Made by a program: the position numbers and the translations under genes. The notes beneath the pieces were generated by a model. It was not told where the DNA came from, did not search any database, and saw only the letters and a program-made list of their open reading frames with translations. Below are positions 6,049 to 45,102 of a stretch of 64,000 nt of DNA, piece after piece; the first letter of the stretch is position 1; every line of letters starts with the position of its first letter. Origin of the DNA: Lingula anatina (Eukaryota; Animalia; Brachiopoda); NCBI GenBank assembly GCA_051362555.1, contig CM120640.1:51996788-52060787 (forward strand), in the 5' to 3' direction.

Positions 6049-6935
6049 TTACTTTAAGTCAAAAATTTCCAGTAAAATTGGCTCTATCTCACTGGTATTA
6101 ACATGCAGAAGAATCTTGCCATGTTTTTCAGAATACTGCTTAATTTCGCTGAGTCTTTGAAGAAGTGTTGGATACAGGGACACGGCCTGAGAGTAGGAAT
6201 ATGTAGCTTCTATGTAATGCTTCATAAGTACACAGTAACGATCTTGGATGTTAGAAATAAGGGCTCTTCTTGCAACATTTGCATATTCTGGAGAGAAAAC
6301 TGACAGTACGTGCAGCAGTACAAAGAGATTGACATCATTTCCTGCAGCTTCTTTCAAGCGGCGGCAGATGTAGAGGTGGTCTTCATACAGTGGCATCATA
6401 GTATGGCTGGTGACATTTTTCAAAATGAGAGTGGGAATTTCTCCATGTGGTGTTATCCAGGCATCTTTGTCGACGTCATAATAAGCAGCAGAGCGGAGCA
6501 GGATGCAATTCATTGTGGCCCCTTTCAGAAGCACAATCTGCAAGTCCTGACTCAAAGACATAAAATCTTGCAATTTCTTGGCAAATTTGATAAGTTTGCG
6601 CACAATGTTCCCTGTCATGTTAACTAGGTTACTCAAGGAATTCCTCTGGGAAACAGCCTCATCTACAACATAGCCTAGTGTGGCACTATATAAATTCTGC
6701 AGACTGGTTATTAGGAGTAGCTCCTCATCTGTTAGGCGGCGGGTGGTGGGTGTGGCATCTTCTGGTGGCAAAGTGGGGTCCAGTAAAAAATGGGCTTGCA
6801 CATCTGAACATGGTAGGCCATCACAGGAGGCAGATTCCTCCTCATGTATAATGGCTTCATGAATAGTTTTTGTACTTTTTCTTTTTTCGCGGTTTTGCTG
6901 GACCTTTTCAATCCTCTTCTTTTTTTCAACTTCAT
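6049..6935 (-). CDS. Nuclear receptor NR1J/HR96-like: distal cassette B terminal exon (hinge + complete ligand-binding domain)
   Basis: Acceptor ttttgcag|AT at 6935 (phase 1). Open frame (D)EVEKKKRIEKVQQNREKR...FAKKLQDFMSLSQDLQIVLLKG (LBD signature)...SNIQDRY..LMKHY...IEPILLEIFDLK* (HR96-like AF-2 end). Extends ORF 6049..6801. Confidence 0.95.
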
Positions 6936-7207
6936 CTGCAAAATTGAACTTTTTAGTAGTGACAAAGGTAACATTTTGAATAGAAAATGCCTCAAGTCTT
7001 TAGTTCTATAATTATTCCCATTTTCAAATTCAGAAACTAAAAGACCTTCAGTTTAAAGCAGCTCTGGGACTGGCAGAAACTTTCAATGGTTAGCTTGATT
7101 ACATATCTTTGTTGCCTCTATTTCTTTCATTTGAAAAAAGCAGTTCATAGCCCAGGGAAAAAATTGGTATATCTAATTTGATAGCCCACATTTACGCTCA
7201 TATTTAC

Positions 7208-7325
7208 CTAAGATCATGTCTTTTTTCATCCCTGCTGCAAAGCACTTTTTTAGGCGACAGTGAGAACAGAACCGTCTTGTTGCCACATCTACCACACATT
7301 TCCCATGAAACATACAGGACATACC
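7208..7325 (-). CDS. Nuclear receptor NR1J/HR96-like: cassette B second zinc-finger exon
   Basis: ttcag|GGT...TTA G|gtaaat, 118 nt, phase 0 to 1. Encodes GMSCMFHGKCVVDVATRRFCSHCRLKKCFAAGMKKDMIL. Confidence 0.93.
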
Positions 7326-7836
7326 CTGAAGATTAAGTTGTGGAGAGTAGAAAATAAGCAACTCTACTGACAAATACAGACACAAATATAGCTTACTGAT
7401 CAAAACAAAAACCTAAGGCACCACTATAAAGAGGGAGAAAGTCTATTCTTCAACTGAACAAACTAATAATATTATCTTGAACTAGAAAAGCACTCAGAGA
7501 GCACAGACCTCTGCCAAGGCAAGTCAATTCTCTTTATTATTTGATACACTTGAACATCATCCAATTATTTGAGATACATAGTGAGAGGCAGTACTCACAC
7601 TTCACCAACCCCCCCCCCCCCCCAAAAAAAAAAAAAAAAAAAAAAACGAATAAAGCATATACCCCTCCAATTGATGCTGTAATAGATTGTCCTTGTAGCA
7701 GTTGCAACAGAAGTAGTCTAGTTATGAGAAGCCAGTTGTGGAGATCATGGCCCATGCATGACAGAATGAATAGAGATTATCACAAACGACACCTGCACAA
7801 TGCAGCATTTTACTGATGTAAATAGTTATGTATAGT

Positions 7837-7991
7837 AATCCAGATCACCTCCAAAATTTAATAATTTGTTTCTTGGCCCATTTCTGATCTATATTGAAAA
7901 TTTCATCAAATTCGTCCCATGTCTTTTTGCATAATGTTGCTTACAAACAAACAAACAGAACTGAAAATATAACCTCCTTGGTGGAGGTAAT
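7837..7991 (-). mobile_element. Fragment of a Helentron-associated (HINE/DINE-like) element end
   Basis: Minus strand reads attacctccaccaaggaggttat (terminal hairpin), then a (tgtt)n microsatellite and gaatttgatgaaatttt...ttaaattttggaggtgatctgga, the typical layout of such ends. Family assignment is from recognition, not a search. Confidence 0.6.
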
Positions 7992-10900
7992 GAATATATA
8001 TTTATCAGTTATATTTAACTTCTTATATACACAAATTAAGGCCATGGCTACAGCAAACACACATAATTTATGCAACAAATTATTATACTGGTATATCATT
8101 TATAAATTACAACTAATTTTTCTCCTTTACAAGTTGTGCTAAAATTTATTAGAAGCAATATTAATTCCATAATTTATAGTGGATTAAATATTTTAAAGAA
8201 TTAAAAATGAGTTACTGCACATGGATAAAAAACGTATCATTTACTTCCTTTAAAAGTTGAAACCTAAAATTCTATTATAATTAGACTGCTGCACAGTAAA
8301 AAATTTGGTCACAGTCAAGTAAAACTGCAAAATAGTGTTGTTTTTCACTACGTATGTGCAAAATTCCAGACAAGTGCTAGGTAATGAACACAATGGATAT
8401 GACCCAGGTTTCATATTAGTTAGCCTCATTGTCCTGCATAGATTTACAACTTCTCAAAGTAATATATTTCATGGAATGGGGATCACCTAAAATGACGTTG
8501 ACACTGCATTATGTCATATAAGACTGTAACTTTAACTCATATGCAAATTTATGTGCTGGGAAAGCCAACTCAGGAGGCAATGTAAAAGTGGCATTTGAAT
8601 TAAGGTGGATTCGCACTTAAGTGAAACGACTTCAATTTACAGAAAAAGCAACTAAGAAGTATCTGTGGATTCCATTCAGTTTTATTCTTTTTTGCAATAC
8701 TCCACTTTCCATCTTTGCACAAATGAATACTAGATTTGTCCATTTTTGCTTAAGGCCATCTGCAAGCTTAATTCAATGAGACCATCTCACACATCTTTTC
8801 CCATTATTTTTTTAATTTTATTTTTAAAAACAAATTACATAAAACTTTGTGAAAAATATACAGGCAAAAGCATGCCACATGTCAATGTGAACACTCTGAA
8901 GAGGTTAAAGGTATCAGTATTTATTTGATAACACAAACTTAGAGTGAACATATTTAATTTAGATAATAAATATGATTTTTCATATTAGTGTCACTTGAAA
9001 GCTAAAAATAATTGTTCACATTATACAGTGTACCAAGGTGATACATCAGTTACCAAATTGCATGGTACGTTTTTTTATTCTCAATAACTGTCATTATAAA
9101 ACACCTAACTATTGAATAGTCAGATGTATTCTGATCCATTAATGTTTAAAATGTACTGGGGCCACAAATTTACCAGGTAAGTTTGTACTACATAAAGTTA
9201 CAAGACGAGCCACCCATTGTATATGATATGCATGAGTGTAATGTTTAAGACAATGCCTACAATCAGCATACAGTGGGCTACAAGTGCTTGTAACTTACTT
9301 ATCTCATGGCTGGTGCTTCAAACAATAGGATAATTTAACTTGTATTAGCTTAAAAGTGGACAGAAAAGAGCACAGAAAGCACTGAAGCATATTAAAATTC
9401 AGGCAAGTGTAGGCCTGAATTACAAGTGCAATAATCCCTGGAAAAGAAATACTACAGATACCTAGGTTTTGGGTAATGGAGATAAAGGACTTTTCCATTA
9501 AGCCCTTGTCAATTAATGACCATTGGTGATGGGAATTATGCAATAAATATCTATTTCATATATATATTAACATGACTAACAGGTTTGCCTAAACAGCAAG
9601 TTCTGCCACCCCTTTTCCTACAATACCTTTCTATGTAATGACAAAAGCAAATATAAATCATTAAGAAACTCTGGAATCCTTTCATAACAATTATATATAT
9701 AATTTAATTCAATAATAATAATAGTAATATTTTGTTAAAGGGATACTTATTAACCCTAAAATATCTTACTCAACTTTTTGCATAAATGTTACTTGTATAT
9801 CCAAAATACTTATCATACTAAATTTTTTAACACCAAGTTGCATTCCTTTTTTATCACTTTCACAATAACATTGTTTTCAACCATTATTTAGGAAAATTCT
9901 AGTTTGCCTTTTCCTAAGCCTAATCTGGATATTGTTACCAAGAAAGTCATTCCCAGGAACTCCTAGTGGAAATCCACCTTCCTTATGATGTTAATGTGCT
10001 AGTTCAACACCTACTACTATTACACAAAGTCTGGTTTGTGGGCTTTATTATTACTTTCTGGCACCTCATCTGCTGATTGTGCCCCAAACTGCATTCATTT
10101 TTCTCTTCAAAACTGGAAGGTATACATTATAAACACTGCAGGTAACACAAGACTGTTCTGGAGTTATGTAACTATGTTACTTGATCACTTGAAGGGATTG
10201 CATTAAAATGAGGTATCAGATGACACTTCTTACAATGTGAAGTGCATTTTTTTTTTTTTGATTTTTTAGATTTACAAAAAAATCTTGTCATACAGAAAAT
10301 TCAAATTTAACTTATTTAAACTGAAGGAGCGATCAAAGTGCAAGTACAGCTAGTATGCCCAGAACTTTAGAGGAATGCAGAGCCTACATAGAGCAGTACT
10401 AAACATCTATATAATGATATAACTAATACAGAAGCATGTGCATACGTACTACATAGCGTGTTTAACATATTTACTCCAATTTCGTGATCAAGCAAAAAGG
10501 AAATTTAAATACATCCTTAAGTTATATACCCTGTTATTCAAAATTAAAACTAAAAGACAGAACTGGAGTTAAAATATTATCACATAATGTTCATGGATGT
10601 TTTTTGTCATCAGGAAAGTCTGGCCATTTTGTTGACGAGGTCACATCACTCGTTTTGGGGTGAAAGTGCTATTTTTGGTTTCTTGACATTCTCTACCAAC
10701 TTGAATTAGAAAAAGTTCAACGACAAATATAAGCTGTGCACAATTTCTTTAGGATGGTGCAATTAATTTTCCAAAAAATTACTTTGCTTAGATTTTATCA
10801 CTAATAACTTAAAATTACACCAATTTTCAATGGACCTTTGTTAACAAGACTGCCTAACATCAACTTAAAAGATGTTATCAAAAATCTGTGGCAGCAGATT

Positions 10901-12312
10901 GTTCTTCATACCTTTGCAATTGTCAGAAACTAAGGAAAGTGGCCTCTTTGCAACCCCACAACTGAAATTTGTGCAAAATTGTTGGTAAATAATAACTTTT
11001 GCTGACTCGTCGCATCATAATTTTTAGGATGATGAGTCTTATTGAATATTCGATATATAATTTTTATCCCTAAGGCCATAACATTTAATACAGGCAACAA
11101 TTTGCTACATTGTTATTATTGTTAAAACGATTAGGATAGAGGGGTTATATAATAATAGCGGCCTTGTTTGGCCAAATCACAAACAATCAATATTCCTTGT
11201 TGCCTTCTTTCTTGCTATGAATGAGACTATAAAAGTTTGTGGTACACTGAGATGGAGGAGACATAAATACCAATTTTGGCAATTCCATCTCTAGGGGTTG
11301 TGGTGGGAAAATACTACCAGATATTTCAACTCACAGGTACAAATGGCACCTTTGCACAATATGTTAATCAGCATACCTGCCAGATATGATAGCCTGACAC
11401 ATGATTGAAAAAATAAAATAAAATAAATAATTTGATATAAAGAAGGGTATATAACATTAAGGATGAATTTTCTGTTCCAAGTATATAGAATAACTATGCT
11501 TCTCAACAATGACACAGATTACCTACAGAGCAATACTTAGATTGGTATATGTCACACAATAAAAGATCTAAATTTTAAATCAAATGAAAATACAAAGTTA
11601 ACATGATTTAGCAAGGTTTTTGGACACACCTACATTTGGTTAAATGAACTAAGACCCAATTTGTTGAACTGTTAAAATTAAAAATAAAAATATGACTTTA
11701 AGCTTTATTATGCCAATCAATTACAAAATTTCCACACCATACCATACATATCACAGTTGGGAGCACTAAATATCACCTAAAAGCTAATCATGCTACAACA
11801 ATATTTACAATATAATACACCAAGAAGAAGTATAAAGCATCCTGTACTAATTTCCCATTTTTTTTCTCAAATTTTCAAAATGTATCTCCTTGACTGTTCT
11901 ATTGCCGAGATGAGCAAGTTTAATGTGTTGCCCATTCTTACCAGCCTGCACATAGACATATGGGTACAGAATTAACAATGCCGATAATCAAATAAAATAG
12001 CACTGTTACCTGTATGTGATCTGCATAGCACTTCTTGTTGATTTTACCAGAAATTAGGGACCGCATGTGGTGCAAAAACAATATTCAGTGACAATAATAA
12101 ATAATAACATTATTAACCTAATGTAACACAAGTGCTATAAATAAGAAATAAAGATTTTCAGTTCTCACATAAAAAATTTGAATTACTCTCACAATATAAT
12201 AAGATGAAGAATTATGATCAAACTCACAGGAAAGTGTTGTTTAAACACACTTTAACTGTTAGCTTCAGTTTCTAGCATTAAGATAAAACAATAATTGCTA
12301 TATAAATTCAAC

Positions 12313-12318
12313 TTTATT
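12313..12318 (-). terminator. Candidate poly(A) signal for nuclear receptor isoform A
   Basis: AATAAA on the minus strand followed by a U/GU-rich tract (ttattgttttatctt). It lies ~1.7 kb downstream of the cassette A stop and upstream of cassette B. Confidence 0.4.
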
Positions 12319-12342
12319 TGTGGTATGTGACAACATTGAGAG

Positions 12343-12547
12343 CATTCAGACTAACTGGATCAATCCAACTCTGCAGGAGATTCTAATTAAGTGCAATCAC
12401 TGTAATGGGCCTCCTGGGGTTGCTATGGGGGTTATTAACCAATTAACTAGCTGCTCTAAGAGGCGTGTCAGACAATTATACCGATTACCCTGAATGCACT
12501 TTAGCGAGAATCTCCAGCAGAGTTGGATCGATTCAGTTGGTACGATG
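12343..12547. mobile_element. Palindromic MITE (~200 bp)
   Basis: aactggatcaatccaactctgcaggagattct pairs with gaatctccagcagagttggatcgattcagtt. Its GATCGATC-type arms resemble the MITEs at 34.3, 44.5 and 45.8 kb. Confidence 0.65.
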
Positions 12548-14041
12548 TTTTAATTTGAACATGGTCATAAATATCCCACTACAAGTCAGGTCAGTGTGTA
12601 TACTCCTACTAACAGAATCTTCTTCACCCAGCATATCTGTCATCTCTGCCTCATCACTGAACTACACTGAACCACAGCAAAATAGATAAATACTCCTGTG
12701 CCTCTGTGACTTGGAAATGTTTCCCTATTGTAAAGCTTGATATATACTGAGCAAAATTATAAGCGACCCATGTCAAGTACTTACGTAGCATGAAATAGGG
12801 CATCCTAAATGAGCTAATATCGTTTTATAACTGTGCAAAATTTTTAATTCTCATCAATTAATAATAACACCAAAATTTGTGTCTGCCTCTGCCAGAGAGC
12901 ACTAACATGCACACATGGATGCAGTAACTCAACCATACTACAGCCACGGCCTGTCCAACCCTTCTTAAACAATTAAAGGCCAAGCTAACCCCAAAATGTC
13001 AAACTTCATCAAAACCTATCATGTCACACATACATAGCAAATCATGCCACTGGTATGAACTCATTCCAGTACTTGACTGGCCTGTAAATTCATCTGGGTT
13101 GTTCTCCAAAGACTTGTCCCCAGTCATGTTCCAGATAGCATCCCTAAGCTCCATAAAGACTACAGAAGTAGATTAACATTTTCACGGGGCATGCCTGACA
13201 CCAAATGTTGGACATGCAAGACATCTCGTCAAGATCTGTTTCTACGTGATCACCCCCCCCTACCCCCCTACCCAATTTTTCTAATGGACAGTAATTTTTC
13301 ACAGAATGATCAACAGAAGGGATTTAGTCTTATTTGAAATAGGTGCAATCCTAAATTTGAAGAAATCAAAGGGCATTTATATTTTTGTTCAGTATACATC
13401 TTGGTAAGTGAACTAAATGGTTTCACTTCCATCACATTTCACTTGACCTTTCTTTCATATATATAAATTTAATATAATTTTCGACCGTGTACGTTTGGCA
13501 GGTTATACCTGTACACAATTCTTCAGGGGTCACAATGAATTATATCCTCATTTCACAACTTAAAGTGGACCACAGATGCATAACATGCCTGGTCTATACC
13601 ATATCTTTTAGAAGATCAATAACAGATTATTTTACCATCCAAACAGATAGTGCATTTGTTTTGTTACAAGAGTCTTATTTAACTAATTCGGTTGGTGAGT
13701 AATGTAAACCATATATCTTAAACTATCTCTAAATATATTTAGATTTGCAAGCACACATGCGCACACACACACACACACACACACTGTATTAATGAATCAT
13801 TCATATTGACTACTTCTCCTTATATGGATTAATTAATAATATTTAAGATATTACTAAACAATTATATCACTAATCCAAGCTCATGAAATATTGGCAATAT
13901 TTTTGCCATAAATATTTTGCGTATCATGATCCTGCAATATTTAAACCTCCACATAACTAATAAGGAACCTGAGGAAAATCCAACTGTGATCAAAACATGA
14001 AAATGTCTTTGGTCTCCTCCGTGTTAGGACAACAGGCATGC

Positions 14042-14919
14042 TTAACGAATGTCAAATATCTCCAGCAATATTGGCTCTATCTCATCCACATTAACATGCA
14101 GCAGAACCCTGCCGTGTTCTTCTGTGAACATCTTCATCTCGTCTAGAATCGACAGCACAGCAGGGTACATGCGTCTTGCTTCTCTGTACGAGAACTTGGC
14201 CTCAAAGTAATGCTTGAGCAGGGTCAGATACCTGTCCTGAATGTTGGAAATGATAGCTCTATTAGTCAGGCTGACATACTCTGGGGAGAACAGGGAAATG
14301 ACCTGCAGAATCACCAATACTGTGGAATCATTGCCCAGCAACTTCTTGAACTTCCTGCAAATCTTCACATGGTCCTCCTGGAACCTATTAAGTATCTGGC
14401 CTGCTGTTCTCTTCAAGATCGATGTCGATACCACACCTCTGGGGGAAACCCAGGCATCTTTTACTGCATCATACAGGGTGGCTGAACGGATGTATATAGA
14501 ATTGATGGACGTGCCTTTGAGAAGGACAATTTGTGTTTCCTGGCTCAGTGTCATAAAATCAACAATCTTTTTGGCAAACGTGATCAGTCTGCGGATGATT
14601 CGCCCAGTGGAGTTGACTAGATTGTCCAGGGTTTTATACTCTTCTTCTAAGGGCTCGTCTGCCACTATGCCCAGAGACATATCATAGTTGGCCTGAAGTG
14701 TGGTCAAGAAAGCCAATTCATCATCAGAAAGGCACCTTGTATTGCTGGTCTGGTCCTGTGCAAAGGATGATGGGGGTGGAATAGATAATAACCTGCATGT
14801 TGAGGTGGAGGAAGGCTCTTCCATCTTGATCTGCGTCACAGGAATATCAGTCTTTGGCACCTTTTTCTTATCTCTTGTCTGTACTAGCTTTTCCATCCGT
14901 CTCTTCTTTTCTCCTTCAT
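14042..14919 (-). CDS. Nuclear receptor NR1J/HR96-like: proximal cassette A terminal exon (hinge + complete ligand-binding domain)
   Basis: Acceptor aattaacag|AT at 14919 (phase 1). (D)EGEKKRRMEKLVQTRDKKK...FAKKIVDFMTLSQETQIVLLKG...SNIQDRYLTLLKHY...IEPILLEIFDIR*. Matches ORF 14042..14944. Confidence 0.95.
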
Positions 14920-16764
14920 CTGTTAATTTGAAAAAATAAATCAAATTAATTATAGAAGTATTATAAACAGTATTTTGTTACTCAGAAAATTCCAATAGTT
15001 ACTTATGTTCTTAACAAAGGTTCCCGGCTGAAAGTCAGACAGGTTTGTATAGATTTAAAACATGAGAAAAAGAATCAATTAACAAAGTCATATGTGGGAA
15101 ATAATTAAATATAAAAGGAATGACAAATCTTCATTTTGGCACGAAAAGTACCATAAAACACATTTTTTCTTTGGGTAAATGACAACTTTCTCATATTTTT
15201 CAATGGCAAATGAATCCATTCAGACATTCAAAAATTGCGATTATGTATTATTTTTTTAAAGTGTAGTTTTTGTAATAATCTCTCAATGTGTTGATTAAAT
15301 GTATTTATTGTGGAATTTTGAATCTCATAAGAAGGGTTGTTATCCCTTAGTTTTATAAAAACTAACTAGTAGAGGTGCAGGATCAACTGGTTTTTTTAAA
15401 CATGAATATTCATTTCTTCATTCATTGTTTTGCAGTATAAGTGAAACCATATTTTGTACAAGCTATGTGCACAGTAAAGCATTAAAGCATTAATTATGGC
15501 AAAGCAGGCATAAAAATCTCAAATGCTTACCACCAAATAAATAATGCTGGCATTTGCTAAGCACGCATTTTTATGGTTTTAATATTTTAGCATGCTGTTC
15601 TGTACTTTAATGCTTTCTTTTTTAACCTTTATTTTTGTTCCTCTGGGTTTCACTTCTGTTATACAAGCAGTAAATGTTGCCCAAGTCTGATTATATCCAT
15701 TAGAAGACCACAATCAAACTGTGGAAACTGATGGGCCTATATACCCCTCCCTCGAAAAACCACTTTACCTGGGTTACTGTTTATAACTTGCAATAAATGA
15801 CTCAATCTCTACTGTCATTTTCACCGTAATCATAAAACACTGGGTTATATTTGACAGTATTAGACAATATTTGTGTAGTTGTTGTTTTTTCTGTGTTGTA
15901 ATTGCCAGATAGTTCACTGACCTTTGATATCTGATTTTTGACAAACCATCCCCCCTCCCTTTGCAGCATTCGTGGGCTTCACTACTGCAAAATAAAATCG
16001 CAATGAATTGTTATTGCATTTTCAATCATCCCATTTTTAATCAAAAGCTTTCAGGAGCATCACTGCTACAAAAAAATCTATAATGATATTCCATGACTTA
16101 ATAAACACATAATAAAACATTTCATGATTTGCACTTTATACCCACTAAATTTCAGCCTGTTCTGCTTCACCCGTCTAATATCCCCATGTTTCAATGCATC
16201 AGTAAACATAATTGAATATTTTGGACCGTGCATGACTGGTCTGCATGACAAAATATGGAATGGCATGTGGCACAGTTTTAGCCATTGGCAATGAGAGTGC
16301 ACAAATTTACAATGAGGTATAATATTCTAAAATGTATGTAATTATAAAGCTGGACAGGCATCTTTGAGCCATTTTTCTTTGTTTTTAGGAAACTCACTAT
16401 ATGAAAATATGAACCACATTCTACAAGCTGTGCAAATGAACAGAGAATTTCTGGAAATTGTTGACCTACAATTTTTGTGACCTGCACTATATACTGGACA
16501 TGCACACATCCATTTCCACTGAGGTGATCAATTTCAATTTCTAAAAACAAATATTTCCTCCAGTGATCAACATCAATTATTTTCAACACTTCTAACATGC
16601 GATGTGGTGGGAATTATGATGGGTACTCTTTCCTTACAATCAGCCAACCATATTCGCATATCACAAAGGACGTCAAATACTAATGACATCCATCTTTTCA
16701 TGTATTTGGGTAATTTCTCAAGAACATTCTAGTCATGCAGTCATCAACAGGGCTATTTACTTAC

Positions 16765-16882
16765 CCAGGATCATGTCCTTCCTCATTCCAATGGCAAAAC
16801 ATTTCTGAAGCCGACAGTAGGAACAGAACCGCCTGGTGTTCACATCAATCTTGCATTTCATTTCAAAAACACATTTCAACTC
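16765..16882 (-). CDS. Nuclear receptor NR1J/HR96-like: cassette A second zinc-finger exon
   Basis: ttttccag|GAG...CTG G|gtaagt, 118 nt, phase 0 to 1. Encodes ELKCVFEMKCKIDVNTRRFCSYCRLQKCFAIGMRKDMIL. Not in the ORF track; translated by hand. Confidence 0.93.
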
Positions 16883-18401
16883 CTGGAAAATATTAAAAGC
16901 ATCACCTTTTTATTTAGATGTTTTCCTAAAAGTCCCAACCGTAAGTCTTCAAAAAGGAATTAAGAGTATATATCATTACAGAGTTAGTAAAAACATAGTC
17001 TACTGAAAATGGTTAATGCCAACAGGAAAGCTCCCCAGCTATATCACATTAAAAGCAAAGTTGATGGCTTGGCATGATGGGGAGCAGGGGCAGGGAGGGA
17101 GAGCTCGAGGGAAGCTGCAAGCGCAATAATTGCAATTGTTAGCTTCGTGTTAAATTCTATTTTAAATCAATTTTTGTCTGTGCAGCATATCAGACTTATG
17201 TTTTCACCTTATCAAATCTTTTCATTTATACACCATACATTCGCGAATGTGGAGCACAAAGATCAAGACAGGGTGTACCTCAAATATGGATCTTTTGCTC
17301 TCCATATCCGCGACAGTATCAGACACACACACCACATCATCTGCAAGGTGAATGTGACACCAACTAGTGTATATCACATAGACCTCTACTGCTGTATATA
17401 ACTTCCTTCAGAACAAAGCAATAATCACAAAAGCCTGTGACAGAGAAAAGGGATTTCCAGGTATGAGAATATCATATTTTCTTGGTGTCTTCTTGTTATT
17501 TTGATCAAGTAATATCTGTTTATCTTTGAAATCATTTACTCGGACGTCTTATTGTTATATTCATCAAGTAATATCTGTTTATCTTTGAAATATCTACCTT
17601 ATCACTCCAAAGTGGGCAATATAATCAATAGTGAAGAGTTTATTTGTAGTGATTATTGGTGTCAATGTATTTTTCATATAAATGTATATGTCAAAAGGCA
17701 GAGGAGATCAACATACACTCTCATGACAATTAGGTTTTGATGATGGTATGTGAACCCTCCAATATCTGAGTGTGTGCAAACTGAATTTCTAAAATATAGT
17801 TTAACAATAAGAAATGGAATGCATGACGTTTAAAATGTATTAGGAGAGACAAAACTTGAAGGTGTCTTAAAATAAAAAAAAACATATCTTACACGTTCAG
17901 AAATGGTGTTCTTTTGTACATAACTAGCAGATTATTAATTGGTGGTATTAACAATTGATCAAAATTAGCAGCATATGTTTTGAACATTGTTTTAATAAAA
18001 ATATAAGGAATCACATATTAAGTTACTCAAGTTACTGTAGTTTGTAGTAATCAATATACCATTTGAAGATCATTATCCATTAGCACAAATATTACAAGAA
18101 ATGGCAAACAAAGAAATGAAATATTCTATAAATGACAAGCATTGCATTTTTCCAGAGGACTAGGTATCCCATCCACAACCAGGGAAAAGACGAGACATTC
18201 CCTTCCCTGAGGTGTTGTGTCATAAACACCCATAAGAATGTGTAAATAATTAATAACATAAGTAATTTATTAATAAGGTGTATACTTCAATCAAATGGTT
18301 TCTGTTAGGCAACTTAACCACCACCTTTTTTTGTATTCTACTTAACACAACGTCAAGGAGGTGAGGTGTCACTCAGTTAAGCTGATTGACTGACAGCTTA
18401 A

Positions 18402-19484
18402 AGTCATACTGTGTTCTAAAAACAGAAAATGTTAAATGATTTATTAACAATATAAATACTATAAATTAATTAAATTCGTTTTACCTTTGGAGACAGCTAG
18501 CAATACATCGAATTTGGATCAATGCATAGAAGTTCAAAAATCCAATCATATTGTCAAAATGTGCTACAATCAGCAGCGATCACTTTGCGCCCAAATGCTG
18601 CTTGCATGACCTGTGATCTGAATTGTGTGGTGAAAAAGGCAAGGAGAAAACTCAGAAATGATACTGTTAACAGTATATTTGACTTTTTGGAGCACAAAAA
18701 TGCAACAGTAAATGCCAGAGCACGGCCAACAGGAGTCGTCCCTTGTGGAAATGCACATGATGAGGAAGAGGAAAGCAACTGCTACAGCTCAAAAACAGTC
18801 TACAGCAAGAAGAATATTGTTGAATTATCAGGTGTATTTGTGAAAACTTGAATGTTTACATCTTACTGGTTTCAAAATTTGTGTTACTGCACTGATCACG
18901 TGTAACTCTATGAAAGAAGTACTGGGGTAAGTTGCATAGGTGTGAAAAAAATTTTGAGCTGATATATTTGCGTCTTTTTTTTTTTTTTTTTTACTTGCCT
19001 GGCTTACCTGGAAGGTGACGGTAAGCTCCAGAGGTGTGAAATACTATGCCAGCTGTCAAACCTTTATATCTAATGTTACTGTCTCGTTCTGTCAATTGAC
19101 AGAGCCGGCACGTGTGAAAAACTATGTCAGCTGCTCTGCTACCAAACCTTTACTGTAAACAAAAGAACTTTGGTGTTTGTTTTTGTTTGATTGTAAAAAA
19201 GTATCCAGTTTTTCTTGTCTATGGTGTGAAAATACTTATTGGAAGACAGGGTTGAAAGTAACTGTACCCAAAACTGAATCAACCTGAATGGTGTCACATG
19301 CTTCGATGCTGCTCACGTCACTCAATAGCCTACTTCCTCGCAGCGCCACCACGCTGGCGTTTCTTAAACTAGATTTACACCTGTACAAAATCTGTGTAGA
19401 AACTAATAAAATGTAATCAGTCTCTTTAACTGACCAAAAATTACTTTTGGGCACATAAACCCATTTTTTCAACACAGTATTCCT
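18402..19484. mobile_element. Decayed TTAA-target DNA transposon, Kolobok-like ends
   Basis: Left TTAA|AGTCATACTGTGTT and right AACACAGTATTCCT|TTAA (12/14 inverted match, TTAA on both sides). Contains ORF 18522..18851 of unknown identity. Confidence 0.55.
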
Positions 19485-21451
19485 TTAATATCTAGCATGA
19501 AAGAGAACCATCCAATCCCCCCATCACCATCACCACAATCTCCAACGTGACATGACCAATTAGCTTTGACTGAAGCATATTTCTGTGTTAAAGAGCGCAT
19601 GTCCTAGGAATAATTTTTGCCCAAACATTAGGAAGTGAACTTGTAAATTATGTAAGCTAAGACTCCTGTATCTTAATTATATGACAGAATCTCTCAAAAC
19701 ACATTTACTGATTAAACTAAAGCTAGGTTATAACAATCAATGTGACAAGGGCACAAACAAGACCATCCCCATTCTCAGGCAGGTAGGAAAGCTATGTACA
19801 GAGAGAGAATCACAAAATAGAAAAAATCATTCTACAAATGTCTGTTCAATCGAGCAATATTTTGTCAATGGTCTGAAATTTTAACCCATTCTAATATTTC
19901 TACCCAATGAATACATCTTTATATGATAAAGTGAATCAATTAGCAAAGAGGAAAATTGTGATTTTGTCAAGGTAGCACTAAAAGCAGCTTTCATTGGAAA
20001 AGCAAAATTTGGATAAATAATCACAAGACCTAGGGATACAATTTCACTTTTTATATTGGAAAAAGAACAATCACAAAATATGCACATCAGCTAATGTGTT
20101 TCTTTGACTGATAGTTGGATTTTTATTATCAGTATTCTGCAACATTTACTCAACCTGGATCATTGCAAAACACTCCAAGATGTGTGCTCAGCAAACATTA
20201 ATTCCATACTAGTAGGTTGATGTAATTCATTCTATGACTTTTTCCTTTTGCTTGTATTGAGCTTTCAGTTGTACGCTATATAATAACCATACTATCCACT
20301 GTGGAACCAACAGTGATGCAATGACCACTCAAGAGTTTCAAAAATAACTTTACTACATATTTCACATACCAAAAAATAGAGAGAAATTCAATGCTCCATT
20401 ATTTTGAAATTCCCTTTTTCTTTGATTTTTAACTATTTCCAAATTTTGCCTCAAAGCTTTAAAAAGATTCCACCAAATTTAAGTTCAAGTTTAGAAATGG
20501 ACATAAAGTCATTGGTCTGAGGTCAAACAGACAGGAGTGTTTTGCCTAAGCACAGAAATGTTTGTATCCCAGTGTCTTGCTTTAGACAGGTGTGCATACT
20601 TCTACCCAACCCCTCTCTGTCCCAGTAGCTGCAATTAGTGCTTACCTCTCAAGCAAGAATGAAGCTTCCATCCAGACAACTGCTCCTCAAAAATCACGCG
20701 CACTGCTTACTGCAGGGTCTCCCAAAACAACACATAACATGCAGCACTGGACAAGTAACTTTGCAATAGAAATCTTTTAAGATTTGAGTTCTTAAAAGAA
20801 CACATACATCCATAAGCATATTAGAAATGAGTTAGAAACAAATAATTTGAAATACAGTTGGACAGTATTAGTAATGACTGCTGTTTTAGTAATGAACAGG
20901 ATGTAATGAGTATAATATTATAATAAGCATGTATTTAAACTTGTATCTGGCAATTCAAGGTCAGATAAAACAATATTGATTGATGATACCATCACCGGAC
21001 ATAACATTGACTGATGATACAATAGCCAATTTTTTATCAAAGGCAACACATTAACAATCAGACAGCAACAATGCCAATATTTTTGTTGCAACTTTTGATG
21101 TTAACTTGGATGGCAAATATTCAGGCATTAAATAATAAAATAAAACAAATATTGACTTTTGTTTTCTGTCAATATGTTTTACAGACCTCACAAAAAGTGA
21201 TATCGACCTTGGGACAGCCAAGGCCAATATCACTTTCCAGAGGTCTGCAAGACAATGTATTGACCTCAGCTACAACTAATACTTTGTTGGAATAAAACAA
21301 AACAAAGGGAAATGTTCAGGACAGTGTTAAAGAAATGCAAGCAACATAGATACATGTCATGCTGATTATTGATTCAACTTTGCATCTTAAAAGCTGCAAA
21401 GTTACAGACTATCACAATTTTGAAAATGAATTACTTAAGTACTAAAAATAC

Positions 21452-21625
21452 CTTTTCCTTGAAGGCATTTCTGCGAAAGAAAGCTTTGCAGGACTCGCAA
21501 GTTATAGCATCAAAATTGTATCCCAGGGCACTATCTCCACACACTCCACAGACTTTATCCTCTTTGTTCTTGATTTTCCTTTTGCTTCCCACTCTCTGGG
21601 GTCTCACATCATCAGGTGAAGATGC
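21452..21625 (-). CDS. Nuclear receptor NR1J/HR96-like: shared first zinc-finger exon (P-box ESCKA)
   Basis: ttttattaag|GCA...GAA AAG|gtattt, 174 nt, phase 0 to 0. Encodes ...[50 protein letters not shown] is diagnostic of the HR96/DAF-12 (NR1J) group. Confidence 0.95.
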
Positions 21626-22156
21626 CTTAATAAAAGAAAAGTAGTAAGATATGACAGTCAAACAAAATTGCCTGCAGGCACAGGACTAAAATCTTCTCCC
21701 TTTTTGCAGGGCATATAATAAAATACAATGTTAATTGCTTCTAATAATATAATATAATGATAATAATTCAAGAAAACACAAAACATGACAAATATAAAAA
21801 AAGACAGCAACAGTTCAATTTAGCCCACCAGGGGGTACTTCAAAAGATCAGTGACCTTGACAGGTAGGCCAAAGTAACCCATTCCTGGAGCATCGTAATG
21901 AATACAAAGACTGGAAGAAATAATCTACTAGTACTACACACTTAAAACTTAGGTGCCACACACATAATCAACAGATCAAAGAAAATATGCTTTAATAAAT
22001 CATTCCACATCAATTAGTAAAGACAAAAATAAAATAATGTCTATGAATAAAATTACGTTAAAATACTTACTTTCTTAATTTTTTTACAAGCAAACATTAT
22101 TATGATGAACTTGAAAATGTAACATAGTACTAGTACCCCAACTGTGTATCACTTAC

Positions 22157-22234
22157 CGACATATTCATCATGCTTTCTGTTTCTGAAGATGGAGGTGTTG
22201 GTATGCTACTGCATGGCAGGTCATCAAATGTTGA
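22157..22234 (-). CDS. Nuclear receptor: N-terminal (A/B region) exon 2
   Basis: Strong polypyrimidine acceptor ttttttcag|TCA and donor TCG|gtaagt. 78 nt, phase 0 to 0, STFDDLPCSSIPTPPSSETESMMNMS, in frame with the zinc-finger exon. Confidence 0.75.
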
Positions 22235-25200
22235 CTGAAAAAATCAAAAAAAAATTCTTGGAAAAATGAACAGGTATTGCCATGTAGCGAGTATTTCCTG
22301 CATAGATTAATCCCTGGAAAAGAAGTCTCAATCCTCTTGCAGCTAATACACAAAATACACAGTAGTGTTAATAACAAAGCTAGTTACGTGTATTGTTCTA
22401 TTGCTCTACCATACTTTGCTAGTCCCTTCAATTTACAGTTGCACGTCATAACCTGAAATGATAGATTAGATATTTTGAGCTGGATCCAAATTCCATATCA
22501 AGTAGTACACTAAGTGCAACTGCCACAGGGGCATGCACCATACTGATCTTAAAAACTCAACTTAGCTTTAGACCAGAGACACTAAAGCAATTTTCTCTGA
22601 ATTATATAAGGATAACACCACAGGACAATATGACTGTTGCCTACAATGTTGATAACCAACTAAATTATCTTATCATTTTAGAAAATAACAGCAGCATTCT
22701 GTATGAAGTGTACAAAGATCATAGCCATGAACAAGCTGTTCCATTGGTACTGATATTTAACCACTTATAGCTGAGAGACAGGTTGAAAACTTAAAAATTT
22801 AGAAATGAAATATAATGTAATGAAATATTCAAAACAGATTTTGGTGAGGTAAGCAGATGTGTATTACAGATGTTGACCCAACAGATAAGATACCAGCAGC
22901 GTATAGTGTTCTGAAGTAATTTGTAGTCTTTAAAAATTTTATCATCTCACTAAGAATAATAATGCACGTTTGCAATATTTTCACACAACCTACACATTGT
23001 GATCCTTTACAACTTGACTTGTAACATAAGTATAACCAAGAGAAACATAACAATAACAACGTCATTTTTAAAATCAAATAAACATCCTAGAATGGAATGC
23101 ACGCTGTTCCCTTTTTAGTCAGCATTTTTTACTAATAAGAAAAAGATGAAAAAAGTGATTTCCTGTAGAGTTATAAATGTGATAACATGATAGACACTAA
23201 AATGGTATTAAAGGAACTATGAGGTTTCAGGAAATATGTTGTTTAAGAAAGGGTGGATGAATAGTAACAGCTTTTGACCTAATTAAAAATGAAAGGTAAT
23301 ATTTAATGAAATTATCATCTCATACATCTAATGAAGAAAAGATAATGTTTAAGTAAAGCAACATCTGCTGATGATCAAAGCAACTTTTTTTATAAAAGGG
23401 AAAATGGTAGACTTAAAAATCCTTACAATGTATTAAAAGAATCCTTTTTACCTAACACATTTACTTAATCAAATACTGAAACAAAACAAAATGTGTTGAT
23501 GAAAAAGACAACCTTTAAGGCTTTTTATATGGGAAATGGTAGTCTTGGCTTTTACAAAATAAATGTCACAAAATGCAGACTTTTTACAAAGTAAATAAAA
23601 TCTAATATGGTAGTATTTCATGTACTAGTAGATCAAAGTAAAAAGAATAAATCCACTTTTAAAACCTATTTCAACATTTTCCTTTGTGCAAAACATGGGT
23701 CTGTTAGAGTACATAAATTTAAAGCATCTCTGATGACAAGAAGTAGCAGGATAAAATGAGGTTCGATATTAATATTACTACTTTTGAGAACAAACGGCAT
23801 TCCAAGTTTAAGTAGGCTGAATATGGGATATGGTTTTATAAGAAGTGGTTTTTATTACTGGATATATGCAGAGCTATTCAACAGGTTCATTTCATGCCAT
23901 ATAACACACATCCATTGCAGATAGCAATGTTGTGCAGGACTGCTGAAGTGATCATACACCAATATTTTAGCTCATTCAGTCCATCATTATCTCCATGCCA
24001 ATGATGAACAAATATATACGTAGCTACAGTTAACCTCACTTGGTCTGATTCAACAAGTTTCCAATTCCATTTCCAATGAAACATACTGCAGTGATTATTT
24101 AATTGAATGATAAGGAAAAACGCACTAATTCATGTAGTACAAAATGAGTATTCTTTAACAGCTGACATTATCACTTGCCAACAAAAGGTCACCAAGGCAA
24201 ATTAGAAGACTTAAGGTAGAAAGTTAAAATGTGCATTTTTACAATTGTTTGACTTACAAAAAAATTCTAGGCAACAAACTTTGACACTGTTGGGCTATAG
24301 TTTAGTATTCACATTTTATACCTTTATACTTTCAATGCCACAAAAGTACAATGTCTTAGACTGCAGATGAACTGTGACGTCCATAAGTAAATATTAAATA
24401 AAAGTATATAGTAAATTAAGTAGTATAATTTCAAGCCTTCTGACATTCTGAATAAACTACAATTATCATACATATCACATGCAGTAACCATAACCTGTAT
24501 TCTATTACAATTTATTTTTATTATGTCAAATGTTATAAGAGCATTTTCACATGTGCTGTATATGGCAGCTGTAGACCTACACAAGTTTTACAAAATCATT
24601 CTATTTTCCTCCTTACCAAAAAGTTTGTGCAATGAACATCCTCTTCAATATATTAATCTTACCTTTTAGCAAAGAAACACTGTAGTTATCATCCAGATCA
24701 GGAGCATAACTTAACAAATTGTAATTCATTCGTCAGTTCTTCTTTAAATGATAAGGAAACCATGTTGTGAATACAAACAATCATATTACCAGTATCATCT
24801 CTGTGGCTTGTAATGGAGGACACCCATACTAAGTCAATGAATTGCTTTTGTCAGACTGGTCAGGTAGTGTTAAACTGGTCAGGATTGAATGAGATAGCCA
24901 GAGCAGATATTACATGTAGAAGGGAGAAACAGGGATCAATTCTCCTGACTACTTGGTATACATACATTGTAAAAACTATATATACAAAATGTAAAGATAA
25001 ACATACAGACACAGTGTTTGTTCATGATAGAAATGACCTCCAAAAGTGAACAAGATAAACTATGTTTTACAAAAGCATGTATGTGAGTGAGGGAGATTTT
25101 GCATATATGCATGTTGGTCAAGCACCAGAAGATTTCTACAAGGTACTAGTAATTGAAATGTTGATAAATATAACCCTCACCTCTCTGCTCTCAAAATAAA

Positions 25201-25759: not shown

Positions 25760-27637
25760 TACAATCATTTATTAACTGTCAAAATGAGCAATATTAAATT
25801 ATATTGGCATTTTCATCTAATTTTTCTTTAGGATAATGCCATAGGAAGAAAGTTTTCCAACCAGCTTCTTCACTGTAATTAAAAAAAAAAAAATTAAAGC
25901 TTTTCTCATTTCACTCTCAATGTGGATTATACACTTTTTCAACAATGGATGCTTCACTTCTCTAGTGTGTCACAGCATAACATCATTGGTTTATTTCACA
26001 TCCACTAATAATAGCATGCATTTGAGGTACTTCAATATATCCAATATGTTGCTTCAGGTTAAAGAGAAAATGTTGATTGTTTTACCTCAGTATATGACAA
26101 GAATATCATGATGAGGATATAGTTAAAAATTTAACACTGCTTGAAGAATAAGAATTAGTTTGTTACATAATTCGAGGTATGTTGGGTATTAAATATAGAT
26201 TAAGTCATAATAAAATGACATTAATCATTAAACTATAGTGACAGGAAGAAGGCGTAAAGCCCTGGGACTGCATCAATGATCTTTTTTATGAGATGGTTGT
26301 AAACAAAGACTAAATTGCAGTTGTTTGGAGAAAAACAAGTGTTACTTCATCTAAATTAACAACAAACAAGCTTTAATATTTTTTCAAGCTTTTTTCAATG
26401 ATCTACTCCAAACTTTAAAGTTAAGAAAACAGTTTATTTGTCCAATGGGCAAGTATCTGCTTGAAATATTACATAAAACAGATATGCCAAAAAAAAAAAA
26501 AAAAATCAGATCATCTTTTTTATTTCATTCGGCAAAATAAATCTACCATCATTTTTCAAGTGAGAAAGTTTCCTCTGACCTCTGTTTTTTATTACCAACT
26601 AAGTTATGTAAAGATGTATTGATGATAACATATTATTAGATATATTCAACTTTTACATTAGTTATAAATTACAAATGAAAAAAAAAATTAATAACAGATA
26701 TAAATCTATATAAGAAATTAACCCCAGAGTATTTAACAGATGAAACAACCTTCCAGGCTGTGCCACATTCAGGACTGAAGTAAAACAGAAAGAAAAAAAT
26801 ATTTTTAAACATATACATTGTAGGAGACACTACTGCCAGCACCACAAGAGTCAATTCCTATCAGCAAACTTCCTATTTCTCTGTAGGTCACCATGATTGA
26901 ACCCAGTAGGAATCATGTGATATAGCTTAATCAAAAGCCATTCTGATAACATCCATCTCCTCCCCCTGTGCTATCACTACTTTGCCAATATCAATTCTAG
27001 GACAGTGAGGAGGCCCACACTTAAAAAGCGTGTTCATTAACTGCATTAATTTGAAATAAAGAAAATGAAAGAAAAACATTCATCATTGTCATTTATTTAT
27101 CTTTGAAAGGTAATATATTTAGAAGCCCCAGGGTCTTTCAATTGATCTTCGTCTAGCAATCATTGCATCATCTCATTCAACTAGGAATGGTTTGGTTAGA
27201 TCATCTGCTTGCACGTGAATTCTAGTCTAGTTATTGTGTAAATTAACAAAAATTTCACACCCTAATTAATGGAAAATGGAAATTCTTGAAAACCCTCCAT
27301 CAAAGTGACGGGAGTTAATTAAAAGTCTGTACAAGTAATTGTCCTGATAGGCCCTTCTGTTACATTTGACATTTTTGCCTTACTCAAATGAATTTCTATT
27401 CTTTATTTTAAAAATAGGGTAATAATTATATCAATATTGACAATTTAAATGTCAAATGCTATACATTCATTCCTGATATTTCTAAATTCCTGGAATTTCA
27501 TAATGAATTTCAAATTAGCTAGACCCTTCATATGCGTCATAGAAATAATCACTTAAGTTTTTATACAAGTAACTTTAATAGCACTCTATACGGGTTTGAA
27601 AACACAGACTCTAAAGATTATAAAACTCTTGAATAAA

Positions 27638-29841
27638 AACTAGAGGATCAGAGAGGCGATACCGCCTCCGAATATTGTACCACCAGCTGGAGCAAGCGCA
27701 TTCATATAGACCCCCACATATACAAAATAAGGAACACAGCCACCAGTCTTGTGCTTGACAAGCTGTAAAAATGCAATCAACAAGAATTTTCAAAATATGC
27801 AAAAAATATATATATTACTAAAAATGGTACAATCAAAGTTAAGTTCATCGCAAGGTAGGTCAAAGGTCAATTCCAAGGTCACAGTAAATTGCCAGTATAT
27901 GACTTCCTATTCAACTTCAATAGTAACTATGGGCCTATCTCTGCCAGGTTTGGAGTTAAAAGAGAAAGAAATTAGCAGAGTTCAGTTCATGATAATAAGT
28001 AGGTCAAAGGTCAATTTCAAGGTCACACTTAGATTGCCAGTATATGACTTCCTATTCACGTTCAATAGTAACTATGGACCTATCTCTGCCAGTTTTGGAG
28101 ATAAAGGGGAAGCAAACTATGCAAAGTTCAGTTCATGGTGAAAAGTAGGTCAAAGGTCAATTTTAAGGTCACATTTAGATTGCCAGTATATGACTTCCTA
28201 TTCAACTTCAACAGTAACTATGGACCTATCTCTGCCAGTTTTGGAGATAAAAGGGAAGCAAAATTTGCAAAGTTCAGTTCATGGTGAAAAGTAGGTCAAA
28301 GGTCAATTTTAAGGTCACATTTAGATTGCCAGTATATGACTTCCTATTCAAGTTCAATAGAAACTATGGACCTATCTCTGCCAGTTTTGGAGATAAACGG
28401 AAGCAAAATTTGCAAAGTTCAGTTCATGGTGAAAAGTAGGTCAAAGGTCAATTTTAAGGTCACATTTAGATTGCCAGTATATGACTTCCTATTCAACTTC
28501 AATAGTAACTATGGACCTATCTCTGCCAGTTTTGGAGATAAAAGGGAAGCAAAATTTGCAAAGTTCAGTTCATGGTGAAAAGTAGGTCAAAGGTCAATTT
28601 TAAGGTCACATTTAGATTGCCAGTATATGACTTCCTATTCAAGTTCAATAGAAACTATGGACCTATCTCTGCCAGTTTTGGAGATAAAAAGGAAGCAAAA
28701 TTTGCAAAGTTCAGTTCATGGTGAAAAGTAGGTCAAAGGTCAATTTTAAGGTCACATTTAGATTGCCAGTGTATGACTTCCTATTCAAGTTCAATAGTAA
28801 CTATGGACCTATCTCTGCCAGTTTTGGAGATATAAGGGACTAAAAGTTATAATTTTGGAGTTACCATAATGTGCCATAAATTTCCTACAAAAAAAATTAA
28901 TTAAAATAAAGAAAAGGTCATTTTGGTCAAAATTCTTGAAATGGGAGGTGCTCTGAAATTCCAGATGTTCAAATTTGATGAAATAATGTCATTTTTGACC
29001 ACAAGTTGTCTGCTTTGCCAAGCCTTATGTTTTATTTTTCCGGAGTTCAAAATTTATTATCCATTACCGTACTGCACATTTTGCTTTCACCACCAATATG
29101 TACTTTTTGATACAGCGTAACTCGAAAACCGTATGGAATACAAAAAAACGGAGACCACCTCCAGTGTTGGGCTTTACATGCTCTACAAAATGCAAAAAAG
29201 AATGGGTGTCTAGCATTAACGGTTCCCGAATTAGAGACAGTTTTCAGTTTCGATATCTTATGGCCGCTACTCCCATGAAAATGCACCGATTGACCCCAAA
29301 TTCACGGAGATGAAAGATGACCTGAAGGGTAACACTTTTCATTAATATTATTAGTTAAGTCTGTGTGGTGTCTGAATAAGACCGCAAATAATTTTTTTTT
29401 CGGCAAAAATTTTGTTTTTTTGAAAATTTTGGCCCGTTTGACCTTAAAATAAAGGTCAAAGGTCAAATCCAAGGGCATATTTGAAATCTACACATATGAC
29501 TTTTGGAAAGCTGTCTGTAGAAATTTTTCCCATAATTCCTTCTGTAGGGGAGATAATTAGCATTTAATTTTGCCATTTTTGGACAAGGGTGCATTGCAAT
29601 GAGTGCCACACCTAGACCCCAATACCGACAAAGCCCAAATTTTACGTGGAACGAGTTGAGATTATAGGTGACCTAAATCCAAGAGATGGGTATGGAGGCC
29701 CTTACCATCTAGGAGGAGAAGCGGTAACGGTGACTTGGCGGCGGAGCCGCAGGAGCCGCAGGAGCCGCAGGAGCCGGCGGAACATACGGGTCGGGACTAA
29801 AACCATGTGTACCGCCAGCGCCTACGCTGGTGGTACAATTA
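27638..29841 (-). mobile_element. Helentron-associated non-autonomous element (HINE-like), copy 1, in intron 1 of the nuclear receptor gene
   Basis: Subterminal inverted repeats attgtaccaccagc / gctggtggtacaat; end hairpins gtaccgccagcg-ccta-cgctggtggtac and gaggcg-atac-cgcctc; (gcaggagcc)n microsatellite; internal 146-bp array. A highly similar inverted copy lies at 47591-49606. Confidence 0.85.
27840..28840. repeat. Tandem array of ~7 x 146-bp units inside HINE copy 1
   Basis: AGGTCAAAGGTCA starts at 27857, 28001, 28147, 28293, 28438, 28584 and 28730 (spacing 144-146). Confidence 0.95.
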
Positions 29842-31118
29842 ACTGAAGCATTCTTTGTATTGTTATTACTTTTTCAGTCTTCTGTGGTAGCTATTTCAGC
29901 TTGCAACTTCTGTATTATACAAGGACAGGTCAGAGATATAAAACAATGGCCATGCTTGATGAAAGTCAGGCAAGCAGATGTATTCTAAATGACTGGCTAG
30001 TCATTTAGAACTAAATTATTGAATTAAAAATTAAATTTAATTTCTAACCCAAGTGCAGGGACAGGTCGAGCAATAGAGTAGGAGAAAATTGTTTTTCCCA
30101 TAAGGAAAATCCATTCTGGCCGGAAAATCCTGCATAGAGTGAACTTAAATTATATGACCAAAAGGTCTGTTGAGAACATCTGCATATGTACATATATACT
30201 GTGTTAATCTTTGTTTATCAAACAAAAATCTATCCATTAAACATCACTTTGCTTAGACCTTGTATGATTCTCTATCTGAAACAAAACCATAAAAAACATA
30301 TCCCACAGAAGATATGAGTGACAATCAACATGAGAAAGAGGAAATTTTTCAGCATGTGCTTTACAATTTTCATCTATGATAAAAATTACAATTTTGATGC
30401 TTGCTTCAGTTAAAAGATAATAAAATTTTCAATTTTTAATCTACTTGCATAAAATATTCACTGCATTTTGCCTGAAGCCAATTCTACATTATCAACCCCT
30501 AGCATTAGTATCTATTTTATTTCATACTCACTATGGTGTCAAAATTTGATGAAATTAAAAAAGATAAACAAGAGATGAACTTCAATTATTATTGTTACCA
30601 CTACTTTTCCAGCTGTAAACTTCTCCATTTTCCCTTGCCTCTCAACTTTTGAAGTAACATACAGCAGAATAGCCAAAAATGTTGCTGCTGACAACCTATT
30701 CACTCACATTACCATTTCACTTTACTACAAAACCATCACATCCATCAATCCCACCACTGTCGCTGATATAGCAGCTTTCAGTATATATAGTTTTCATCTC
30801 ATCTTAATGATTTTGCTGTAACCATGGCACACTTAGCACATATGCAGAAAACACAGTGCTTTAGACAGAAAATGTGTACTACCTGAGCCCAATATAGGCA
30901 ACAAAACAAAAGGGAATATAATCAATCAGGTAAACATGCAACCCAACAAAATAATGTATTCTAAAATCCATGGCCACGTAGCCTCATAAGAATAAAAGGG
31001 ATTATAATATTAAAATTTTACATTTTCGCTAAAACAACATAATCTTTGTCAATGCAACAGACAAGTACCCGCTCATTACTATAGTGACAGGGGGACCTCA
31101 GAGCGGACGACATTTCAT

Positions 31119-31126
31119 TGACGTCA
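31119..31126. promoter_or_regulatory. Palindromic CRE motif TGACGTCA ~200 bp into intron 1 of the nuclear receptor gene
   Basis: Exact consensus in a locally CpG-richer patch near the predicted first exon. Function untested. Confidence 0.35.
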
Positions 31127-31323
31127 ACTTGCCCTTGGCCTCTTTCTAGGCCACTGGGTGCTTGGCATTTACGGCTGTACATTTTTACCATGAGTAGTCA
31201 AACTAACACTTATACACACTTCACATGTTCAACAATTAACAAGTTATCAAATCAAAATAATATAATGGCAAAAAGTCATATTCTGAAGATTATTAAAAAG
31301 TTTTCTGCCAATCTCCACCTTAC

Positions 31324-31332
31324 CTCCGCCAT
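31324..31332 (-). CDS. Nuclear receptor: predicted first coding exon (Met-Ala-Glu)
   Basis: Minus strand ggaagtaagtaaacagtATGGCGGAG|gtaagg. Strong donor, phase 0, joins in frame to exon 22157-22234, giving 418-aa (A) and 421-aa (B) proteins. Confidence 0.6.

Positions 31333-45026: not shown

Positions 45027-45027
<1 letters not shown>

Positions 45028-45100
<73 letters not shown>
45028..45100. repeat. (AC)n microsatellite
   Basis: Direct reading. Confidence 0.95.

Positions 45101-45102
<2 letters not shown>

Follow-up and report, generated by a model that had tools for sequence, protein, structure and literature searches.

One first zinc finger and two tandem modules of second finger and ligand-binding domain in an NR1J/HR96 nuclear receptor gene of Lingula anatina

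New ligand pockets of nuclear receptors are attributed to the duplication of whole genes, and the isoforms of one gene normally retain a single ligand-binding domain (LBD). Can one receptor gene instead hold two? The question is raised by a locus of the brachiopod Lingula anatina, contained in a window of 64,000 nucleotides (nt) from contig CM120640.1 of assembly GCA_051362555.1 (positions 51,996,788 to 52,060,787; coordinates below count from the start of this window). An earlier note, made from the sequence, had proposed that a single first zinc finger (finger 1) is spliced there to either of two diverged modules, A and B, each consisting of a second finger (finger 2) and an LBD. Our analyses indicate that the locus is probably one NR1J/HR96 gene whose 3′ half, finger 2 and LBD, was duplicated in tandem, with finger 1 spliced to A and likely, though less often, to B.

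The five exons named in that note lie on the minus strand with AG/GT ends, the expected phases and lengths of 174, 118, 878, 118 and 887 nt. The shared finger-1 exon (21452–21625) carries the P-box ESCKAFFRR and a phase-0 donor. Module A has a finger-2 exon (16765–16882) with the D-box CVFEMKC and a hinge and LBD exon (14042–14919); module B has a finger-2 exon (7208–7325) with the D-box CMFHGKC, a phase-0 acceptor and an in-frame ATG at codon 2, and a hinge and LBD exon (6049–6935). Each LBD exon is open and runs as one exon through the stop, which follows EPILLEIFD(I/L)(R/K) in both. Coordinates, strand, lengths, phases and open LBDs were borne out by the sequence, but the exon set needed amending: module A has a further exon, an in-frame cassette of 63 nt (15922–15984), that had been overlooked, and the second coding exon is corrected to 22157–22234, 78 nt encoding the receptor's A/B region and joined to finger 1 by 31 RNA reads in four of four runs (joint 21624/22156). 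The first coding exon piece, ATG GCG GAG (MAE) at 31324–31332, precedes a GT donor, and its join matches the N-terminus of the three RefSeq proteins of the locus.

These RefSeq proteins could be assembled letter for letter from the exons. RefSeq X1 (XP_013392879.1) equals 31324–31332, 22157–22234, finger 1 and module A with the 63-nt cassette; RefSeq X3 (XP_013392882.1) equals the same 5′ exons, finger 1 and module A without the cassette; and RefSeq X2 (XP_013392881.1) equals the 5′ exons, finger 1 and module B. The LBD of A is 100% identical to the entry named "nuclear hormone receptor HR96 isoform X3 [Lingula anatina]", and X2 is numbered between X1 and X3 under one name. Since X2 joins finger 1 to B, module B is already handled as an isoform of the HR96 gene, and the two-module arrangement is already implicit in these entries, which are products of automated annotation only. 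The domains PF00105 (zf-C4) and PF00104 (Hormone_recep) exceed their curated cut-offs in all three proteins. The P-box here reads ESCKAFFR, a finger-1 motif given as unique to the NR1J group in the available text of PMC4070562, and in trees built from HR96-named matches only, with no NR1I/NR1H outgroup, A and B were placed with the HR96 proteins of nemerteans, annelids and molluscs. On these sequence criteria, we identify the locus as the Lingula anatina NR1J/HR96 nuclear receptor gene.

We searched the window for a second finger-1 exon and found none. In a tblastn search, the finger-1 exon had no significant match besides its own position (E 5e-38, the next being E 0.36), and a profile built from the finger-1 regions of 164 homologues likewise recovered 21452–21625 alone (independent E-value 3e-24; next 3.1). 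When three other HR96-type proteins served as probes, every one matched one finger 1, two finger-2 and two LBD exons, and no second Lingula finger 1 of the NR1J/HR96 group was present among the 120 + 34 database matches listed. The claim of a single finger-1 exon is therefore upheld over the 64 kb.

The transcripts were studied using seven of nine raw-read RNA runs of the same species (all but X5 and X6), reading 6–30% of each (the run labels are unrelated to the RefSeq isoform numbers). In the first set, runs X1, X4, X7 and X9 were mapped on 4500–24499, requiring a joint to have three reads from two starts; in the second, runs X8, X9, X2 and X3 were mapped on 4800–7470 at 85% likeness. The splice from finger 1 to the finger 2 of A was found in all four runs of the first set, with 35 reads in total (1, 2, 15 and 17 per run). 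The cassette at 15922–15984, supported by RNA joints and by RefSeq X1, is present in the majority of the junction reads of A (38 and 34 for inclusion, 10 for skipping) and inserts 21 amino acids into the hinge directly after the finger 2 of A, in the C-terminal extension or T-box region. No counterpart of it was found by tblastn in the 272-nt intron of B. Read depth continues unbroken from the stop of A to ~8800 in the same four runs, defining a 3′ untranslated region (UTR) of ~5 kb (8810–14041) that stops ~1.5 kb short of module B. Run X1 has T-run joints at 8807/8825, and these, with AATAAA/ATTAAA hexamers at 8925, 8822 and 8816, suggest a distal poly(A) site of A near 8807–8825, the cleavage sites being approximate. 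The UTR contains 14 such hexamers between 14041 and 8800; it is unusually long and also holds an inverted pair at 12350–12384/12507–12541 (35 nt, 89% complementary).

Module B is weakly transcribed and spliced internally. Two reads in run X7 span the splice from its finger 2 to its LBD, and run X9 covers the LBD exon at a depth of ~3–6 and the 3′ UTR down to ~5340, with about one read on finger 2; the latter spans about 7233–7329. The UTR of B is accordingly placed, approximately, at 5340–6048. By read depth, the two cassettes have separate stops and 3′ ends (A to ~8810, B to ~5340). One apparently unspliced read in X9 crosses the LBD acceptor, and next to nothing maps upstream of 7325; in the ~1.5 kb between the end of the A UTR and B, depth reaches up to ~0.2 in the one bin clear of repeats. 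Elsewhere the signal was patchy (runs X8 and X3), consisted only of cross-mapped A reads (X2) or was absent (X4). A depth peak at 6058–6091 was rejected as expression of B: it consists of cross-mapping reads from module A, whose loose ends equal the A sequence. Three stretches, 7478–7521, 15298–15348 and ~10941–11131, draw many partly fitting RNA reads from elsewhere, as dispersed repeats do; the first of them is situated 150 nt upstream of the acceptor of module B.

The two modules are anciently diverged. Finger 2 is identical at 26/39 residues, the hinge at 24/60 and the LBD at 122/230 (53%), close to the half estimated in the earlier note, and only 11/33 four-fold sites are identical, indicating saturated silent sites. 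In spite of this saturation, the finger-2 exon of B retains a phase-0 acceptor at the homologous place. A direct look at selection was possible because the reads of runs X7–X9 (study P3) differ by 5–10% from the reference in non-coding parts, pointing to a distant population or a cryptic species. Among the 40 of 42 substitution rows shown, 17 lay in the B LBD exon; those at 6067, 6073 and 6076 stem from cross-mapped reads of A and were set aside. The remaining 14 comprise one TAA to TGA change that keeps the stop and 13 substitutions in sense codons, every one of them synonymous. Given that 35% of the transitions and 16% of the transversions possible in this exon are silent, such an outcome has a chance of ~6e-7, and module B is under purifying selection. 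The proposal of an old internal duplication maintained by selection thus agrees with the silent sites, the synonymous changes and the open exons.

Phylogenetic placement of the duplication was less informative. In the tree of LBD cores, A, B and the Logan proteins P0002 and P0053 form a clade (100/99), to which our first tree adds a long-branched bryozoan. The first tree paired B with P0002 (95/87), and P0002 was considered as a separate cross-species orthologue of B, a candidate that we rejected as the pairing was not upheld in the LBD-core tree. That tree leaves the four unresolved and rejects neither A+B (p-AU 0.40) nor B+P0002 (p-AU 0.22), so the A/B duplication is not datable against other species. 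The branch of A is longer than that of B (0.71 vs. 0.30), and among 28 conserved columns where the two differ, the outgroup consensus is kept by B at 14 and by A at 3, a count possibly biased by the outgroup set having been found with B as the query. Being closer to the outgroup consensus, B is not decaying; of the two modules, it is the weakly expressed one that is conservative.

Would the two modules make different receptors? The LBD cores with helix 12 were modeled with predicted local distance difference test (pLDDT) values of 94.0 for A and 91.7 for B, and a Foldseek search, made with the model of B only, retrieved the LBDs of VDR and EcR with TM scores of 0.80–0.83. Starting from the VDR ligand-contact residues named in the accessible portion of PMC13370873, we mapped 14 positions by hand via alignments, leaving out Tyr143, Val300, His305 and Met338 as insecurely aligned. 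Ten of the 14 are the same in A and B (the equivalents of VDR Leu227, Ala231, Val234, Ser237, Ile271, Arg274, Trp286, His397, Tyr401 and Val418). The other four differ (B/A: Leu233, Met/Ser; Met272, Leu/Tyr; Ser278, Tyr/Leu; Cys288, Thr/Ser), three of them non-conservatively, while helix 12 and the equivalents of Arg274, Trp286 and His397 are kept. As four of 14 ligand-facing positions differ, A and B are predicted to have different pockets and ligand preferences.

The difference is not confined to the LBD. The D-box reads CVFEMKC in A and CMFHGKC in B, and for this reason half-site recognition alone, not the full DNA specificity, would be common to the two products; the "one DNA specificity" claimed in the earlier note is too strong, since finger 2 with the D-box, the hinge and the dimer surface switch along with the LBD. 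The switch point does lie in the middle of the DNA-binding domain, as claimed, but it is nothing special: in the parts of PMC8363021 at hand, an intron between P-box and D-box is described as common in HR96 genes, and an ordinary intron between the fingers requires no particular cause.

Several results weigh against a product that joins finger 1 to B. The joint from 21452 to 7325 is not listed in the seven RNA runs at the threshold of three reads, compared with 35 reads for finger 1 to A, nor is a loose end at 7325. RefSeq X2 comes from automated modeling, and its read support is not visible. Apart from X2, which forms a cluster of one, no database protein runs from finger 1 into the finger 2 of B, and none of the 34 short database fragments listed as matches over the junction exceeds 75% identity. 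We found no convincing docking-site and selector pairing, but homopolymer or weak AT-rich matches only, among the longest 25 of 186 inverted repeats, and the ligand differences between A and B are predictions only. Finally, exon 7208–7325 begins GGT ATG, so a product without finger 1, starting at the codon-2 ATG, is possible. The missing reads are nevertheless unremarkable. With B estimated at about one-fifth of A in run X9, three to four finger-1-to-B reads are expected, and fewer than three have a Poisson probability of ~0.3; the depth is too low to exclude the joint. The finger-2 acceptor of B has 14/20 pyrimidines vs. 13/20 for that of A. Of the mutually exclusive terminal splicing proposed earlier, the joint from 21452 to 16882 is thus established, and the joint from 21452 to 7325, modeled in RefSeq X2, is one that we infer.

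The ATG, the unseen junction and the end of the A transcript ~1.5 kb upstream would all suit a module B that is a transcription unit of its own, with a promoter or non-coding exon in 7326–8800 or with a spliced leader joined to the acceptor at 7325, producing a one-finger receptor that acts through dimerization in the manner of insect E75B. We consider this unlikely. Met is the commonest residue at that place in full-length orthologues (10/30), so the codon-2 Met of B requires no special cause; finger 2 retains all four cysteines; reads upstream of 7325 are near zero, although the finger 2 of B is itself covered only about once there; and RefSeq X2 joins finger 1 to B. For the version with a spliced leader, the lineages with trans-splicing given in the available text of PMC12460157 are nematodes, tunicates, rotifers, flatworms, chaetognaths and ctenophores, not brachiopods. 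The trans-splicing of finger 1 to B between separate transcripts, instead of cis skipping of A, would avoid a route past the 14 hexamers in the UTR of A, and for chelicerate sDscam, the accessible part of PMC9258826 reports variable 3′ regions joined on by trans-splicing. It would require a separate promoter for B, for which no reads were seen, and finger 1 and B stand in order on one strand; we regard it as very improbable.

Separate NR1J paralogues are the norm, with four in bivalves according to an extract of PMC13467592, and the locus might accordingly be two ordinary tandem genes, the 5′ exons and finger 1 of B having been lost from the assembly by a collapse or misjoin and RefSeq having borrowed the finger 1 of A. 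The window contains no N, however, and since RNA depth is continuous from the stop of A to ~8800 in all four runs, a misjoin would have to fall within ~1.5 kb. Together with the absence of a diverged finger 1 from the window and of a second Lingula finger 1 of the group from the 120 + 34 matches listed, this makes the explanation improbable, if slightly less so than trans-splicing. The low expression of B, with no depth in run X4 and next to none in X2, could also suggest a functionless leftover duplicate carried by low-level read-through. An 887-nt exon that stays open despite saturated silent sites, 13/13 synonymous substitutions with the stop preserved, and the closer likeness of B than A to the outgroup consensus largely refute this, and we give it hardly any credence.

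Under the tandem-cassette reading that we prefer, an old duplication extending from within the finger-1/finger-2 intron to past the stop would have made a second terminal cassette. Most transcripts would join finger 1 to A and end in the UTR of A, while a minority would join finger 1 to the B acceptor through a 14.1-kb intron, skipping A and its poly(A) sites. The choice may be made by competition between splicing and 3′-end formation in the long UTR of A, and we propose that A dominates by proximity for this reason, as in the Drosophila gene PGRP-LC. The outcome would be two receptors that are predicted to have one P-box in common and to be unlike in D-box, hinge and ligand pocket. More tentatively, with doubt slightly outweighing belief, we suggest that the gene switches its whole LBD and finger 2 by alternative terminal splicing, so that a single promoter and P-box would serve two sensors of ancient divergence that differ in their ligands and dimer partners, a derived pocket A as the dominant form and an ancestral-like pocket B as a regulated minor one. 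If true, ligand diversification would be possible without whole-gene duplication. With two complete LBDs, each under selection, following a single DNA-reading helix, such a gene would be a natural domain-swap experiment. The promoter and half-site recognition being constant, one could study how ligand specificity and the choice of dimer partner come to diverge, and whether splice choice allows a xenobiotic sensor to retune itself. An annotation that collapses isoforms would hide such receptors in receptor inventories.

The window contains other features. Two inverted copies of a repeat element (27638–29841 and 47591–49606), likely a non-autonomous transposon, are 92% identical over 1.9 kb and include a 146-bp tandem array of six to seven copies; one of them sits in the first intron of the receptor. 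One or more multi-exon genes at 57785–62262 on the minus strand encode a secreted-looking protein with Trp-rich repeats and no Pfam match (a 340-amino-acid open reading frame at 61240–62262; exons 60919–61239, 59626–59859, 58823–59182 and 57785–58096). On the plus strand, ~43700–46460 has exon-like stretches of a gene with acidic and basic low-complexity sequence, for example at 46109–46456.

Several receptors from one gene are familiar from TR-alpha1/2, GR-alpha/beta, EcR-A/B and E75A/B, in which the N-terminus is changed or only the last helices are replaced, and E75B is a form without finger 1. We know of no nuclear receptor isoform that swaps a whole duplicated finger 2 and LBD. The portion of PMC10027210 available did not confirm the finger-1-less form of E75B. 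In open-licence PMC and bioRxiv, we found no paper that deals with the Lingula locus, or with duplicated LBDs used as alternatives in a nuclear receptor, although subscription papers and supplementary inventories could hold one. Of 301 fetched proteins, 167 have a finger 1, and among these the Lingula pair alone combines the same finger 1 with a different finger 2 and a different LBD; the comparison was drawn from the best 120, 150 and 34 matches and cluster representatives, and other cases may be hidden. A Macrostomum pair was rejected as a second case, being an internal deletion model, as were isoforms from Liolophura and Octopus that share the whole DNA-binding domain. A 3384-amino-acid model from Medioppia subpectinata (CAG2099968.1) covers many HR96-like LBD repeats and few complete DNA-binding domains, and is probably a fused model of a tandem array.

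Within NR1J/HR96, a group of hormone and toxin sensors characterized by activation through sterols, bile acids or xenobiotics, the Lingula gene resembles Drosophila DHR96, C. elegans DAF-12 and NHR-8, and molluscan NR1J1 alpha-delta in its ESCKAFFR P-box, its zf-C4 and Hormone_recep domains and its tree placement. The known diversity of the group consists of separate paralogous genes, the four of bivalves having different ligand-response profiles (PMC13467592, in extract), whereas the Lingula locus has two LBDs behind one finger 1. In this respect it is closer to Drosophila PGRP-LC, CG42235 and Pip, in which, according to the available text of PMC6191721, common 5′ exons are followed by duplicated, mutually exclusive multi-exon terminal cassettes with separate 3′ ends, of which the proximal one dominates; for PGRP-LC, whose cassette encodes the ligand-recognition domain, this dominance and a coupling to polyadenylation are described. 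Those genes are not nuclear receptors, and they differ in having a demonstrated docking-site and selector pairing, with none convincing among the 25 longest inverted repeats of the Lingula window, and junction reads for their cassettes, while the B junction of Lingula is predicted by the RefSeq model. They share with Lingula HR96 the tandem homologous terminal cassettes behind common exons. This class of architecture is known outside nuclear receptors, and the Lingula gene is probably a 3′ tandem-cassette gene of the PGRP-LC kind, apparently undescribed until now for a nuclear receptor.

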